Shown here: one piece after another, positions 4,130 through 27,107 of the stretch
Layout of the letters: each line of letters starts with the position of its first letter
How positions within the stretch are numbered: the stretch's first letter is position 1
Source of the DNA: an uncultured virus (IMG/VR IMGVR_UViG_3300035670_000151)
Lineage: Duplodnaviria > Heunggongvirae > Uroviricota > Caudoviricetes
Strand: one strand, 5' to 3'
IMG/VR virus record: IMGVR_UViG_3300035670_000151
Location: 1-64,000 of that record
DNA: 64,000 nucleotides
Position numbers and translations under genes: made by a program
Notes under the pieces: model-generated
What the model was told of the DNA's origin: nothing
Seen by the model: the letters and a program-made list of their open reading frames with translations, nothing else
Database searches by the model: none

Positions 4130-4588
4130 ATGAAAGGTTTATGGAATATGAATATTTTACCGTTAACTGCTGGATTATTAATCAGCATGGCAAAGCGTTA
4201 TGACCATAGTTTCGGCTTCAACCCCGCATCTATGGTCATTTTTAGTAGCGGCGAAACCTTGATCGACAAACAAATCAGGCTGATTCGCACTGCTGCCACC
4301 TATTACAAAAATCTAGAGAACTCACGGGAAGGCGAAATCTACAAAGACCCCTTCTCAAACCAGCTTCTAGAAGAAATGACCGGTGAGGGTTTCTACAAGC
4401 CAGAGCTAGAAGATGATTATAAGAGCAAGGCCACAAGAGCAGCCCTTAATGAGGCAGAGCAGATCGCCAATGCCGTCGTAACCTTCGATGGTCCGCAGCC
4501 AACTATCACGATGAGTCCTGTAGAAGTAAGACACGGTTGGTCGCCCCCTACATCACCAGACAATAACCAGCACCTGTTCTTTGACTGA
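4130..4588 (+). CDS. hypothetical protein
   Basis: ORF; start may be 4148. Confidence 0.7.
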   Translation: MKGLWNMNILPLTAGLLISMAKRYDHSFGFNPASMVIFSSGETLIDKQIRLIRTAATYYKNLENSREGEIYKDPFSNQLLEEMTGEGFYKPELEDDYKSKATRAALNEAEQIANAVVTFDGPQPTITMSPVEVRHGWSPPTSPDNNQHLFFD

Positions 4589-21574: not shown

Positions 21575-22395
21575 ATTAGCAAGCTGAGAATACACTTACT
21601 AAGGGCAGTCTTAAACCCCTTATTGTTTAGGGCCTTTTCCACTATAACCCGGTCAAGGTATCATAGTAACTACCAACACCGCCATTTTATTAATCGCTGG
21701 CATTTGCGATATCACTACAAGCTACTCATAGTATCTTAATCCCATTGAAGTTTTACCTCCATTAAGCTCCCGCTAAAGAGCAATGAGTTCTTCCACTACA
21801 AACAATCCATCCTTGCGAGACTTCATGCCCCCACTCTAGGTAGGGCTTAGGTGCCTTTCACTTATAGCTGGACAAGGCTTTGCGTTGATGAATCAACTGC
21901 TGGATTTGAACCAACAATCAATGGATTAAGAGTCCATCGCATTACCGTTATGCTAAGTTGTTTCCAGTTAAGACGTGCTTGTCCAATGGTATCATTCCCT
22001 TTTGGGGAACAACATGCCACACGCCTCATGTCTTTCGCCTTGCGGGCTACTCAACGGTTACGTAAAGTGTCTCCACCTTTGGTAACTGGCTAATGCTCTT
22101 CCACGCTAATGGTCGAACTATTACCCTTATGGTTCACTATCGACTTCGAATAAGTTTTGCTTGGTGCAGGTGTTTGCGACTTCACTAGCTCACCGATTAG
22201 CTCTGCTAGTTATCCTTTCGGACCTAAAACCCTTATCCTTCAATCTATCCCCTACTTGTATAGAGGAACCTTTCGGTCAGTTCCATGTTGCTTAAGTTGA
22301 CCTATTACTAGGCGGCTTGGTTTGGCTCCTAACCTTTCACCAGATTACTCTAGCTTATCCGCTTCAAGCAGCGACCGGTTCGTTTCCTTGCCGGT
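21575..22395 (-). ncRNA. GOLLD-like giant ncRNA (~820 nt) with an embedded tRNA
   Basis: ORF-free, many GNRA-capped hairpins, GTAACCGTTGAGTAGCCCGCAAGGCGAAAG and GAAAGGCAC segments, terminal hairpin AGTAAG-TGTATTCTCAG-CTTGCT, own promoter, tRNA-cluster context; recognised from memory of the family. Confidence 0.75.
21891..21962 (-). tRNA. tRNA-Lys(CTT) embedded in the GOLLD-like RNA, no CCA
   Basis: ATGGA-CTCTTAA-TCCAT, D and T arms intact, imperfect acceptor stem. Confidence 0.75.
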
Positions 22396-22548: not shown

Positions 22549-23148
22549 TTAGGAAGTCCAAGACACGATGACTGGAACGTCCTGATAGATCAGATGACCC
22601 GCGATATAGAGGACCAGCAGCAAGCCGAACCAAGCCAGCCAACGATACTTCTCAATGAGTCTCGCTACCGCATTGGCAGCAAAGATCATGATGAAGATCG
22701 ACAACACGATACCGAAGATGAGCGCGAAGTAATGATCCCCGGCAGCACCAGCAACGGCAAGAATGTTATCGATGGACATCGAAAGATCGGCAAGAGCAAC
22801 GGCGAAGAGTGCGGAACGATAGTTCGCAGCAGCCGTTACGTTCTCCGTGCTACCATCAACGATACCATTGTCCCTGATATCCTTGAACATACCCCACGCC
22901 ACATAGAGCAGGGCAAGACCACCGGCGAGTCGGATACCGGGAATCTGTAGCAGGTAGGTCGCGAGGAACAGCAGAACGATGCGGAAACCTGCGGCCATGA
23001 ACATGCCGTATTTGATGACCTTCTTACGCTGTTCGGCGGGAAGGCTGGCGGCTTTTGCCCCGATAATAACGGCGTTATCACCGGAGAGAACGATGTCCAG
23101 CAGAACGATACTACCGAACGTCATCAGGTTAGCAAGTAACCATTCCAT
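22549..23148 (-). CDS. terC: TerC/YjbE family membrane protein
   Basis: DIVLSGDNA.II, ADLSMSIDN.LAVAGAA; start 23148 overlaps the terB stop (TAATG). Confidence 0.92.
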   Translation of the reverse strand: MEWLLANLMTFGSIVLLDIVLSGDNAVIIGAKAASLPAEQRKKVIKYGMFMAAGFRIVLLFLATYLLQIPGIRLAGGLALLYVAWGMFKDIRDNGIVDGSTENVTAAANYRSALFAVALADLSMSIDNILAVAGAAGDHYFALIFGIVLSIFIMIFAANAVARLIEKYRWLAWFGLLLVLYIAGHLIYQDVPVIVSWTS

Positions 23149-23594
23149 TATAGCGCATACTCCTGCGGGCGAAGACCGAGCTTGACGCAAATGGCCCGCG
23201 CCACCTGCTGTTCGGAGGGTTGGAACTCATTGTCGGCATTGGCCACGGCCAACATGCCAAGCATGATGACCTTTGCACCATCAGTGCCAGCAGCCTTTTC
23301 GATGCTCTCCATAAGAGCAACCTTACCAGCTACGGCAGAGAGGGACATTTCTTCGGCGCAGTCATCGATTGCCTTAGCAACCTCCGACGACTTGAAGGAA
23401 GGAAGTTTCTTGGCGATGACGCGGCCAAGAACCACCTTCTCTTCATCCGATACGTTGCCATCAGCGGCAGCGACCAGATAGGAAGCTTGGACGGTGCGAA
23501 TGAAAGTCGCCTTGTCGGACATGCGGCTAAGAGCCTTTTCAGCATCAGCCATGAAGTTGGAGGCGATGCCTTTGAGGCTATCGAGGAAACCCAT
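23148..23594 (-). CDS. terB: TerB-family protein
   Basis: LVAAADG.VS.EEK … VANAD.EF..SE…..IC..LGL. Confidence 0.9.
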   Translation of the reverse strand: MGFLDSLKGIASNFMADAEKALSRMSDKATFIRTVQASYLVAAADGNVSDEEKVVLGRVIAKKLPSFKSSEVAKAIDDCAEEMSLSAVAGKVALMESIEKAAGTDGAKVIMLGMLAVANADNEFQPSEQQVARAICVKLGLRPQEYAL

Positions 23595-23705
23595 ATTAAA
23601 CCCCGCTACTAAAAGGGGTAGTAGAAGCATTTCTTCCTACTTCTACTACCCCAAGGTTATTCAGAACGATACCAACTAACTAGGTTGGTGATGTATTGCC
23701 GGCGA

Positions 23706-24305
23706 TTAGTCGGCAATGGCCTTGTTGATGAGGGCCAGCGGTTCCATCGAGTCCGCTTCGGTGACGCTCACAACGTCCACGATGTCGAACTTGCCGGTCA
23801 ACTGGTCGTCCAGATGATCGAGATAGTTCCGCGCCGCCTTGTCGTCGCCGATCTGGATGAAGAGGAACGTCAGGTCTTCATCCTTCGCGATGTTGTTCGA
23901 AGCATCGGTGATGAGCTTGGCGACCAGCGCCTGATCGTTCGGCTCGCCATCGGTGAAGATGACGGCGAAGGTCTTCTTGCCGGTCTTCTTCTGCTTGTCG
24001 ATGGTCCACGCGATGGCATCATGCAGCGGGGTCGAACCACGCGGACCACGCGAAGCGAACAGCTTGTCGATGGTGGCGGACGTAACGCCTTCTTCGACTT
24101 CGAAGTTCGGGCCGAACACACCGACATCGATGCCGTCAGCGTCGAACGGTTCGATGGCGCGGATGAAGCCCAGCAGCGACTCTTGCATTTCCTGCCAGCG
24201 GGTCTTCCCCGGCATCTTGACGGACGGATTGCCCATCGAACCCGAAGCGTCGATCAGGGCAACGAAATCGAATTCAGATGCCGTTTCGGCGTTCAACTGA
24301 GTCAT
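23706..24305 (-). CDS. vWA-domain protein (Ter-associated)
   Basis: MIDAS DASGSM, GSTPL, IFTDGEP, FIQIG.D..A..YL..LDD. Confidence 0.92.
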   Translation of the reverse strand: MTQLNAETASEFDFVALIDASGSMGNPSVKMPGKTRWQEMQESLLGFIRAIEPFDADGIDVGVFGPNFEVEEGVTSATIDKLFASRGPRGSTPLHDAIAWTIDKQKKTGKKTFAVIFTDGEPNDQALVAKLITDASNNIAKDEDLTFLFIQIGDDKAARNYLDHLDDQLTGKFDIVDVVSVTEADSMEPLALINKAIAD

Positions 24306-24814: not shown

Positions 24815-25074
24815 ACCATCAGTTGCGGGGCTGTCTCAAACCAGTAAGCATAGCCTTCTTCCGCTTCTTCATTCTGCTGGTCGCAATATTCTTGGGCGTC
24901 GATCCGGTTGTAAAGGTAGCCCTTCACTTCATCGGATAATTCGGGCTTAGCAGCACACCCATACAAAATTACGTAAACTTCCACCGCTCATAACTCCCCA
25001 GAAACGAAAAGGGCGGGAATCGCCCTGTATTGAAACAGATAGCGATTCCCGCCCGTGTAGGAAAGAGGAAAATT

Positions 25075-25398
25075 TCAATTTCCGAAGCGTAACGTCTTAT
25101 AATTCTTGAACACTTCCCTAGTCGGACCTCTTACCGGGACTGAGGCGACGGCTGTTAGCTCATCGTCCATGGCCCCTTCATTAAAGGTAGAATAAGGAAT
25201 GTCATTGTCAGCCATTAGGAGCGCAGCTTTGTGAAGCTCCCTTTCGTTTCTAACTCCGATCCCAACGAAATGAACATACTCCCAAAGCTTATCGGGACTC
25301 TTAGCGCCTGCCTTAGCAGCAACATGCCCAAATTGGATTAGTTGCTGCTCCGGTGTTATATCTTGGCGCACAAAGATATAGCAATAATATGGAGTCAT
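25075..25398 (-). CDS. Pth2-like peptidyl-tRNA hydrolase
   Basis: YIFVRQDI…Q..IQ..HV…, V.NE.EL, F.E..MD.ELTAVA..P. Confidence 0.7.
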   Translation of the reverse strand: MTPYYCYIFVRQDITPEQQLIQFGHVAAKAGAKSPDKLWEYVHFVGIGVRNERELHKAALLMADNDIPYSTFNEGAMDDELTAVASVPVRGPTREVFKNYKTLRFGN

Positions 25399-25724
25399 TA
25401 TGCTACGCCTTTGGTGGCTTGGAAAATTACTTCCCAAGCGCCTTGTTCGGCTTCTGTTAGATATTCTTTCGTTAGATAACGATATTTCAGGCTGGCTTCA
25501 TAGCGAGCGTGATTGATGCCCCAATACTGTAGAGCGCCGTTGGCGACCTTAGTAGGGTTTGTGGGCTTAGTGAAAGCCTTCTTTAGTAGGGCGATTGCAA
25601 CGCCAACCTTGTCCTCGCTCTTAGCACGAATGGCCTTGATGATGCAGCGAGTATAAACGTCTGCTCTTGAAACGTCTTTGTTGTTGGCTAGGGTATTGTA
25701 ATGGTCGAAATAGTTCTTAGTCAT
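25398..25724 (-). CDS. hypothetical protein translationally coupled to the Pth2-like gene
   Basis: AAGGA RBS; TAATG overlap; L.KAFT..TN..K.ANG motif. Confidence 0.8.
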   Translation of the reverse strand: MTKNYFDHYNTLANNKDVSRADVYTRCIIKAIRAKSEDKVGVAIALLKKAFTKPTNPTKVANGALQYWGINHARYEASLKYRYLTKEYLTEAEQGAWEVIFQATKGVA

Positions 25725-25786
25725 GTGTATTGTCCTTTAATCTTAAAATAAATCAGTAAATCGCTTTGGGTTAGATACTGACTACT

Positions 25787-25816
25787 TTAAGGAGGACGAT
25801 GGGGCAGCTAGTGCAT
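25787..25816 (-). promoter_or_regulatory. leader peptide M-H-amber-L-P-H-R-P-P-ochre
   Basis: AAGGA RBS; ATG CAC TAG CTG CCC CAT CGT CCT CCT TAA; 3' part pairs with the downstream RBS. Confidence 0.6.
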
Positions 25817-25842
25817 TCTACTTTCCTTCTGTAGTGAGCTTT

Positions 25843-25871
25843 CAATATAACACGTAATTCTAAGTTGTCAA
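25843..25871 (-). promoter_or_regulatory. sigma70 promoter
   Basis: TTGACA…GTGTTATATT. Confidence 0.7.
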
Positions 25872-25948
25872 GCGGGCCGGTTGCTACCCCGGAAATGGCA
25901 CGAAACAAGCGACCTTCAATGCTACATTACCCTTGCCACTAGTTATAG

Positions 25949-26287
25949 TTAGTGGCGAACGTTCTTAGCCCACTGTTTGCGGGCCTTAGTCCCAAGCTTC
26001 CAAGACTTGCCGCCCCACTTAGAGATATGTTCATCGTCCCATTTAGTGGGGACGTTCATACGTCTGCTGCGAAGCTTGACCTTGTAGTGCTGGATTTCTT
26101 CGTCTTTGCGAGCGTTACGATTTTGACGCTTCTCGTTCATAACCCGGTGACGATCACCGAAGTTTTCGAGGGCGTAAAAATTACGTCGCCACCAGCCAAT
26201 ATCTCTAGGGCCATAAGAGGCGAGGACGCCCGAAAGTCCCCAAAGGCGGTTTTGAACTTTGTTAATTTCGTAGTGTTGTTTCTTCAT
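25949..26287 (-). CDS. basic Arg/Lys-rich phage protein
   Basis: R..R….P..WDD……KSWK…K.RKQW pattern; GGGAG RBS. Confidence 0.8.
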   Translation of the reverse strand: MKKQHYEINKVQNRLWGLSGVLASYGPRDIGWWRRNFYALENFGDRHRVMNEKRQNRNARKDEEIQHYKVKLRSRRMNVPTKWDDEHISKWGGKSWKLGTKARKQWAKNVRH

Positions 26288-26421
26288 GAATATCTCCCTT
26301 CATATTCGGGAAATATCATGCTCCATATAGTTCATATTTAATTCCTTACTTAATAAGGCGGAAGGCTACTATGACCGAGTAGGCGTAACTTCGCTTTAAG
26401 AGGGATACTCACCTTAGAAAC

Positions 26422-26498
26422 TGGTGCGCGTTACAGGGATCGAACCCGTGGCCTGTCGGATTAGGGGCCGACTGCTCTACCAACTGAGCTAAACGCGC
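26422..26498 (-). tRNA. tRNA with an 8-nt anticodon loop (CCCCUAAU), identity undetermined
   Basis: Otherwise canonical 77-nt cloverleaf, stem GTCGG/CCGAC, CCA. Confidence 0.8.
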
Positions 26499-26531
26499 TT
26501 GATTTTCAGGGCTATAGCCGATTCGGGAACG

Positions 26532-27107
26532 TCACGCAACCTTTGTTTCTGACATTCTTTTAACCGCTAGTCCTACTACGTCTTCTAGTCGATTCCACAG
26601 AAGAGCGTCTTTCGTTGTGTTTGTCATAAGAGGGCGGACATTATTAGAAAAATCCCCGAACTCTCTAATATACATTCCTAGTTGCTTGCTCTTATTGATT
26701 ACACTGAACTTCATATTAACAATACGATCAGCTACTTTAACCGGCGCTGCTGCGGGAAGTGCTGCTAGTTTTTTGTAGACGCTAGCATTGCGTTCCTTAC
26801 GATTGGCCCCTTCGCCAGTGCAAGCGAACACCATAGCAGCAATCTCAGAGCCGAAGCATTCGGCCAGCCTGTTAATAGACATATCGCAGTCTTCTAGGAC
26901 ATCGTGAAGCCATCCGCTAGCTCGATATTTAAAGTCATCGTAGCCATTTGCTACTAGAGTTTCTTCTACATGGGCTAGGTGGAAAGGATAAGGGAAGTCA
27001 CCATAACGCTGATCGCCATGAAGTCTAATAGCAAAAGAGCGGAAGTCTTCTATATAACCTTCTAATCTAGGTGTTGCAGGTGTTGTTAATAGAGTTATCA
27101 TTAGCAA
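26532..27107 (-). CDS. HD-domain (p)ppGpp hydrolase-like protein (SpoT/Mesh1 SAH)
   Basis: H..Q.YG..PY..HL..V, WLHDVLED, VKVADRI.N. Confidence 0.88.
   Translation of the reverse strand: MLMITLLTTPATPRLEGYIEDFRSFAIRLHGDQRYGDFPYPFHLAHVEETLVANGYDDFKYRASGWLHDVLEDCDMSINRLAECFGSEIAAMVFACTGEGANRKERNASVYKKLAALPAAAPVKVADRIVNMKFSVINKSKQLGMYIREFGDFSNNVRPLMTNTTKDALLWNRLEDVVGLAVKRMSETKVA

Follow-up and report, generated by a model that had tools for sequence, protein, structure and literature searches.

Leader-peptide attenuators such as trpL, hisL and pheL sense the scarcity of a tRNA that reads a sense codon, and act on a transcription terminator. A translational route is taken by the arrest peptides ApdA and ApdP (RAPP/RGPP type) and SecM (RAGP), in which an upstream open reading frame (uORF) ends in R-[A/G]-P-P and the stalled ribosome unmasks the next Shine-Dalgarno sequence (SD) (PMC12992588, PMC10987492, PMC7897499); the parts of these sources available describe such peptides as bacterial secretory or membrane 'monitoring substrates', released by pulling force. 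Stop codons have been placed in leaders by design, and in the synthetic switches of Liu, Qi, Yanofsky and Arkin (2011) a TAG in a leader peptide makes expression depend on tRNA-CUA, with multiplexed TAGs cutting the near-cognate leak, as the portion consulted reports (PMC6412442). Expression that is conditional on a phage suppressor tRNA is also described, in the available part of the source, for the late-gene timer of recoded phages (bioRxiv 10.1101/2021.08.26.457843). Here we describe a short amber-interrupted leader and the two-gene operon behind it in an uncultured virus of the Caudoviricetes, in a stretch of 64,000 nucleotides (positions 1 to 64,000 of IMG/VR record IMGVR_UViG_3300035670_000151) that is referred to below as the window. 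The initial annotation of this stretch had interpreted the leader as a gate opened by read-through of its amber codon, and comparison with homologous loci supports that interpretation: the leader is probably a translational switch that reports the reading of UAG as sense, with a suppressor tRNA as its likely input.

The operon and all of its features lie on the minus strand and are given here in window positions:

25844..25871, minus strand: sigma-70-type promoter, with TTGACA at 25871-25866, a 16-nt spacer and TGtTATATT ending at 25844
25824..25828, minus strand: leader SD, AAGGA, as read from the sequence
25787..25816, minus strand: leader open reading frame (ORF) M-H-UAG-L-P-H-R-P-P-UAA, written ATG CAC TAG CTG CCC CAT CGT CCT CCT TAA
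25810-25808, 25798-25790 and 25789-25787, minus strand: parts of the leader, namely the gate TAG, the RPP codons and the stop TAA
25732..25797, minus strand: SD-sequestering hairpin, its 5' arm from the Arg/Pro-Pro codons (anti-SD GUCCU) and its 3' arm with the gene A SD
25733..25737, minus strand: gene A SD, AAGGA, paired inside the hairpin
25398..25724, minus strand: gene A, 108 aa, all-helical, with its ATG at 25724
25075..25398, minus strand: gene B, 107 aa, PTH2-fold, joined to A by TAATG (25400-25396)
25010..25053, minus strand: two terminator-like hairpins directly 3' of B, the second at 25026-25010 and followed by TTTTCGTTTCT
26422..26498, minus strand: tRNA whose anticodon loop, CCCCUAAU, has 8 nt and contains CUA (ARAGORN and Rfam)

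Promoter, leader, two genes and terminator follow one another in a row and so form a compact unit, and the promoter, leader SD, amber leader, hairpin over the gene A SD and TAATG coupling that had been annotated at the outset are all borne out. The promoter agrees with the consensus at 11 of 12 positions, has an extended -10 element, and is the best of 14 promoter-like sites between 22000 and 30000. The leader comprises nine codons, the third of which is UAG, and its C-terminal HRPP is followed by UAA; it is the sole SD-preceded match to a gated Pro-Pro leader on either strand of the 72-kb contig. The two paired arms of the hairpin occupy 25797-25776 (5' arm, GUCCUCCUUAAAGUAGUCAGUA) and 25758-25732 (3' arm), and in the fold five nucleotides of the gene A SD region pair with the Pro-Pro codon region. 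The first paired base lies 10 nt past the UAG, and the Pro-Pro codons begin at 12 nt. The window has a uORF directly upstream of gene A, with a putative arrest site that overlaps an SD-masking structure. An N-terminal localisation signal, as in a monitoring substrate, is absent from the leader, the whole of which is nine codons long. The sequence 3' of the hairpin (AAUACACAUG) contains no U-run and no terminator was called there, unlike the arrangement of a transcription attenuator.

The evidence that this arrangement is more than a local curiosity comes from homologous loci. A query alignment of B and its three closest relatives yielded at least 21 metagenome loci and 31 viral loci, the window included, and omission of upstream-identical duplicates (L004, L016, L034, L036, L038, L044, L051, L052 and L053) left 43 distinct loci, all of which, the window itself excepted, have a B of at most 39% identity to that of the window. 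A strict pattern was defined as an SD, an ATG, at most 20 sense codons, a stop, an optional second identical stop, at most 14 codons, and CCN CCN; 26 of the 43 loci have a match in the 750 nt preceding B. The same loci elsewhere, on both strands, contain 19 matches in 514,040 nt, such that about 1.1 would be expected in the 29,938 nt targeted, and the enrichment over this background is about 25-fold. Three strict matches were judged to be chance (L032, L047 and L050) and three leaders that the SD or length filter had excluded were recovered from translations (L035, L037 and L042), so that 26 of 43 loci, including the window, are leader-gated after this curation. The initial annotation had staked its idea on the conservation of the in-frame amber and Pro-Pro codons in homologues, and they are conserved. 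A separate scan of viral contigs with the motif GGAGGACCACGN{9,39}CTA returned at least 118 stretches; among the 80 loci checked a real leader was seen only in L124, which is the same contig as L039.

Frame was analysed in 24 leader-gated loci, with L046 and L048 checked separately. In each of the 24 a single CCNCC lies 54-71 nt upstream of the start of the gene, and going back from it in the Pro-Pro frame the first stop is reached after 4-13 sense codons. This stop is TAG in 23 loci and TAA in one; in the other two frames, by comparison, the nearest stop is TAG in 12 of 42 cases. The spacer between gate and Pro-Pro thus varies in length while keeping its frame, and is never shorter than four codons; ten loci have two in-frame TAGs. 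The last four residues of these leaders are RGPP (13 loci), RAPP (2), RSPP (1), RDPP (1), CGPP (1), VGPP (2), IGPP (1), LKPP (2) and, in the window, HRPP (1), so an R-x-P-P end is found in 17 of 24 leaders and RGPP or RAPP in 15 of 24. Arginine is encoded by CGA, CGC, CGT or AGA and glycine by GGT, GGC, GGG or GGA, and this synonymous variation indicates that selection acts on the peptide and not on the RNA alone. In six of the 24 loci the Pro-Pro is followed directly by a stop. Locus L046, on a 441-kb contig, ends in S-R-P-P-TAA with the CGT CCT CCT TAA of the window, which shows that the RPP-TAA variant is not unique to the window. In L017, L019, L021 and L028 the leader frame continues into gene A without a stop, and escape from arrest there would be predicted to give an N-terminally extended A. 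As a separate observation on L046, an in-frame stop at 4157-4159 divides its homologue of B between two ORFs.

The hairpin recurs along with the leader. Minimum-free-energy folds pair the SD region in 21 of 21 loci, in 16 of them with the region of the Pro-Pro codons. When the 5' arm of each locus was paired with every 3' arm, the mean duplex energy was -17.0 kcal/mol within a locus and -8.5 (sd 3.3) between loci; in the window the own arms give -20.1 kcal/mol, whereas the 23 foreign 3' arms average -9.4. In 14 loci the own 3' arm ranks first among the 24, and in 23 at most two foreign arms equal it. Alignment of 21 hairpins with MAFFT and RNAalifold gave no consensus because the stem lengths differ, and the cross-locus duplex test was used instead. 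Both the folds and the duplex energies agree with the anti-SD pairing that had been proposed from the window alone, and the hairpin appears to be conserved in form, not in sequence.

A further component, absent from the initial annotation, is a candidate amber suppressor tRNA. It shares the strand of the leader, whose ATG is 606 nt further downstream, and matches Rfam RF00005 at 57.3 bits with one extra loop base; the anticodon is 'ccta' by ARAGORN, and Rfam and ARAGORN both recover a cloverleaf. Among the 25 leader-gated loci besides the window, 17 have a CUA tRNA on the same strand (ARAGORN), usually 17-900 nt upstream of the leader. The sole TAA-gated locus, L012 (200-1278), in which TAG is the terminal stop, has a tRNA with the anticodon UUA. 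Seven loci lack A and carry the gate inside B, at codon 3-6: in L027, L031, L032, L047, L049 and L054 B begins with M-x-TAG and a CUA tRNA is present in every case, and in L026 (1592-1760) it begins with M-E-H-TGA, adjoining a tRNA-UCA. The gate codon therefore matches the anticodon of the neighbouring tRNA in all three combinations, TAG with CUA, TAA with UUA and TGA with UCA. With L009 and L023 left out of the tally, as both are cut upstream, the DNA examined contains a suppressor tRNA in 19 of 26 leader-gated loci, in seven of seven directly gated loci, and in none of eight loci with an ungated B; gated loci with a suppressor tRNA (26 of 33) compared with ungated ones (0 of 8) give a Fisher p of 6.7e-5, which serves as a guide only, as the loci are not independent. 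Architecture, frame, gate type and linkage to tRNAs thus all emerge from the comparison of sequences.

Direct gating is also seen in named phages. Acinetobacter phage ME3 (L057, 1474-1809) and Salmonella phage Arash (L056) have ATG-NNN-TAG at the start of B and a CUA tRNA nearby, and in both the amber-gated start of this PTH2-like gene was missed by public annotation. In Arash the gated gene (L056, 1486-1818) is annotated as two pieces, gp85c and gp84c, and the tRNA (L056, 2804-2878), which is CUA by ARAGORN, carries the public label tRNA-Phe. Two other loci encode a phage transfer-messenger RNA (tmRNA; L005, 2737-3076, and L006, 3107-3446) with the tag VANDNDIVDFALAA. In L005 it lies just upstream of a CUA tRNA, a leader and A-B; L006 resembles a deletion variant in which the tRNA, the leader and most of A are lost and an ungated B is kept.

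We infer as follows how the ribosome stalls, which way the switch acts and what its output does. The strong host-type promoter would produce an mRNA with the nine-codon leader as its first cistron, in which a hairpin with the leader's own Pro-Pro codons (CCUCC, the anti-SD) at its base encloses the SD of gene A. In the OFF state release factor 1 (RF1) would terminate at UAG, 10 nt upstream of the first paired base, and the SD would stay masked. During termination at UAG the ribosome extends over about 9-10 nt past the stop, and with a spacer that is never shorter than four codons, termination at the gate should leave the SD masked. In the ON state a suppressor tRNA, for which the phage's own CUA tRNA is the candidate, would win at UAG, and the ribosome would continue for six codons and linger on R-P-P-UAA. 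The paused ribosome would hold the anti-SD inside itself, freeing the SD so that gene A could be translated, with gene B following through the TAATG coupling. Pro-Pro before a stop codon makes for slow termination, and it is on this that the predicted pause of the window leader is based. For the RGPP and RAPP ends of the relatives, arrest with varied short N-terminal contexts, and without relief by EF-P, is described in the available part of PMC12992588.

The product of gene B belongs to the Pth2 fold class, as the initial annotation had proposed in calling it Pth2-like, and here the evidence divides by method. The family profile (33 members) matches PDB entry 24bt_A, 'peptidyl-tRNA hydrolase', at an E of 2.5e-5. 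The AlphaFold model (pLDDT 94.9) agrees with the Pth2 fold, which has four strands and four helices in about 115 aa, and the 11 best Foldseek rows comprise nine archaeal or human Pth2 chains, 1wn2 (P. horikoshii structural genomics) and 1rlk ('unknown function'), with TM values by query length of 0.70-0.82 and E of 3.5e-6 to 1.1e-4. Pfam does not carry the name as far: B matches no family at E<=0.01 and does not reach the gathering score of PF01981 (PTH2), which is matched at E<=1 by four of the 33 family members (best 6.2e-4). The label accordingly holds for the fold and fails at the Pfam cut-off. When B is aligned with 24bt_A, Q22 and H25 stand opposite Q and H of the solved chain, the two lysines of that chain (in GKKCVQ) are opposite the conserved Q18-Q19 of the B family, and its D (in KDAG) is opposite E74. 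Lys and Asp are reported to be the catalytic residues of the Sulfolobus enzyme; hydrolase activity of B is not assured.

Gene A is all-helical (model pLDDT 94) and has no Pfam or PHROG match and no usable match in the protein atlas; in fold searches its best Foldseek E is 0.11 and its best VIA Z is 6.1, within the chance range for helical proteins. An exhaustive HMMER search returned 57 proteins at E<=0.001 including the query, that is, 56 relatives, many of which are 220-270 aa long with A and then B in one protein. The two genes of the window thus appear to be the split form of a single two-domain protein, and this fusion in relatives argues that A and B act together. A word-index search found no relatives of A and three of B, at 52-59% identity, and when both genes were searched for in viral contigs the only close match was the window's own contig. 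Residues about 29-61 of gene A are also matched in seven giant proteins of 1000-2000 aa (P0008, P0012, P0014, P0025, P0032, P0033 and P0061), at 4-9 separate places per protein; in them the motif of A, or a similar one, occurs as a repeat.

Ribosome rescue has been proposed for jumbo-phage PTH2 by Iyer et al., in the part of the source available (PMC7824862). For the A-B pair the target of the output is most likely peptidyl-tRNA or stalled translation arising under suppression, a suggestion that follows from the PTH2 fold of B and from that alone. More tentatively, and with considerable doubt on our part, suppressor tRNA, gated arrest leader and the A-B PTH2 module might constitute one closed circuit concerned with the state of the genetic code. 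In it the leader would measure suppression, and the PTH2-type enzyme so induced would clear the short peptidyl-tRNA(Pro) complexes left by arrest or drop-off at its own leader as well as peptidyl-tRNAs from read-through across the genome, closing a homeostatic loop. Such a circuit, if it exists, would explain what the orphan suppressor tRNAs of standard-code phages are for, and would mark an intermediate step in the evolution of full recoding.

Several observations weigh against a suppressor-sensing leader in the window and bear on what else it might be. The window hairpin is not significant alone: over 126 nt (dG -22.4) its z is -1.29 against dinucleotide shuffles, over 86 nt it is -4.0 against mononucleotide shuffles, and the case that it is more than chance is thus made by the comparison with relatives and not by the window hairpin itself. 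That comparison has its own bounds, as the closest relatives of B (52-59% identity) are not among the loci compared, the loci share descent so that counts overstate independent events, and CCUCC is kept as an anti-SD anyway, which places part of the Pro-Pro conservation at the RNA level. The window leader ends in H-R-P-P-stop and does not have the arrest core R-[A/G]-P-P; its stalling is putative. The tRNA of the window has an 8-nt anticodon loop, compared with 7 nt in 22 of 22 CUA tRNAs of other loci, which makes its suppressor activity uncertain, and the 606 nt between it and the leader contain an ORF. Finally, a suppressor tRNA is missing from the DNA examined in seven of the 26 leader-gated loci, three of them with at least 3.5 kb on each side. 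These seven loci and the atypical tRNA of the window would both be accommodated if the leader sensed the capacity for termination at UAG (the level or activity of RF1, under host stress or defence), such that any rise in read-through would turn the operon on; indeed, read-through is a competition between RF1 and tRNA, and the element necessarily reads their ratio. We consider RF1 unlikely as the sensed quantity, however, as the gate changes with the anticodon next to it (L012 combines a TAA gate with UUA, L026 a TGA gate with UCA) and none of the eight ungated loci has a suppressor tRNA in the DNA examined; the double TAGs of ten loci would suppress weak near-cognate read-through and fit a strong dedicated suppressor.

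The enlarged loop of the tRNA suggests a different route, in which UAG is read with a +1 shift, as in quadruplet decoding, and the ribosome opens the hairpin by transit and not by a pause on RPP. The loop is unlikely to be an assembly error, as contigs from two other studies (X5 record 2, X9 record 16) span it without a gap and it is therefore seen in the assemblies of three studies; the tRNA could decode UAG, or UAGG as a quadruplet. The four-base anticodon reported by ARAGORN for CCCCUAAU accords with a shift, and the +1 frame is open, along C-P-I-V-L-L-K-V-V-S-I, to a UAA at 25773-25771 in the hairpin loop, so that the 5' arm would be unwound. But the UAG of the leader is followed by C, which leaves no pairing with CCUA, all of the relatives have zero-frame Pro-Pro codons and 7-nt loops, and L046 has the same RPP-TAA end in the zero frame; a shift is distinctly unlikely. 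A simpler account would dispense with the gate, and treat the structure as an ordinary SD-masking hairpin, acting in translational coupling or as a thermosensor, beside a chance mini-ORF whose UAG has no role. M-H-stop is only three codons long, anti-SD hairpins are common, and the dinucleotide shuffles give the window hairpin no standing by itself; nevertheless, coincidence would not be expected to keep the frame across spacers of 4-13 codons, to place a TAG gate in 23 of the 24 loci, to enrich the pattern so strongly over background, or to let the Arg and Gly codons vary synonymously, and we regard it as very unlikely. The last alternative is that TAG is a normal sense codon (code 15) and the leader a plain RGPP arrest peptide without a gate. 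Suppressor tRNAs are a hallmark of recoded phages in the available text of bioRxiv 10.1101/2021.08.26.457843, but the window phage uses the standard code and is not TAG-recoded: ORFs of at least 100 aa cover 0.83 of its contig under code 11, reading TAG as sense increases coding density no more than reading TAA or TGA does, and TAG ends 32 of its 130 ORFs. A crude check of 16 loci of 5.9-8.4 kb likewise gave no TAG-specific gain, and one or two TAGs in every leader of 10-45 codons is far above the usage of a sense codon. Recoding is thus highly improbable, and a switch that reports UAG read as sense remains the reading that we favor.

The surroundings of the operon offer context. The window is a phage contig, identical to an IMG/VR contig along a compared length of 8.3 kb, and carries 22 tRNA genes, Ter genes, a GOLLD RNA and an MT-A70 methylase. 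The GOLLD RNA (21581-22029, minus strand; RF02032, 183.6 bits, full length) lies at the border of the tRNA cluster and has a tRNA-Lys(CUU) inside it, at 21890-21962. A phage-borne cluster of TerC, TerB and vWA (TerF-like) genes at 22549-24305 (minus strand) follows immediately downstream of the operon. A 112-aa ORF (25949-26287, minus strand) separates the tRNA from the leader and is hypervariable among strains: in run X5 at least 36 differences are listed in 26018-26225, compared with 4 in 25000-25950. Among the differences listed there are none in X5 between 25699 and 26017 and none in X9 record 15 (25672-25913), which is not taken as proof of conservation around the leader. A search of 25000-26600 against Rfam at E<=10 gave the tRNA and chance rows and nothing else, and in blastn against phages the tRNA was the sole match.

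If the reading is right, this would be the first natural leader peptide that senses the decoding of a stop codon, with the remaining steps of the switch (arrest motif, anti-SD hairpin and translational coupling) being known mechanisms. Many standard-code phages have suppressor tRNAs of unexplained purpose, for which the leader offers a concrete target, and it shows how a phage can tie one operon to a change in the code without a suppressor-inserted residue in the protein. It would also link phage PTH2-type hydrolases to suppression, beyond tRNA-cleaving defences, and at about 150 nt it is a compact part for the reporting of amber suppression in vivo. Our literature search, with supplements outside its reach, found no description of a natural stop-gated arrest leader; in the part of PMC12992588 available the words 'phage', 'suppressor' and 'readthrough' each occur zero times, and the same is true of 'leader', 'sensor' and 'hydrolase' in the available text of Borges et al. 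(bioRxiv 10.1101/2021.08.26.457843).

Each of the known systems shares some of these features. The trpL, hisL and pheL attenuators likewise have a short leader ORF, regulatory codons whose passage needs one tRNA species, and a downstream hairpin that is remodelled; the leader described here would instead sense the presence of a tRNA that reads a stop codon, and would act on an SD, with no U-run after its hairpin. Compared with known arrest peptides, the leaders are short (9-45 residues), phage-encoded and without a signal sequence, and their arrest site is reached only after an in-frame stop has been suppressed. The timer of recoded phages, in the text available, involves in-frame stops in many structural and lysis genes of a recoded genome, whereas here a standard-code phage would control one small operon through a leader. 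The directly gated B genes (L026, L027, L031, L032, L047, L049, L054, Arash and ME3) are nearer relatives, with the same B family, the same tRNAs and the same predicted dependence on read-through, but in them the stop is at codon 3-6 of B itself and there is no hairpin or Pro-Pro; the separate leader of the window would turn read-through into SD unmasking, and thus yield a protein without a suppressor-inserted residue. The closest idea in print, as far as the sources available extend, is the synthetic TAG in tna and trp leaders (PMC6412442). Those switches are engineered and act on transcription via Rho, in contrast to an element that is natural and, as we propose, translational; the double gates found in nature parallel their multiplexed TAGs, and the phage leader would be the natural counterpart of engineered amber switches, doubled gates included.

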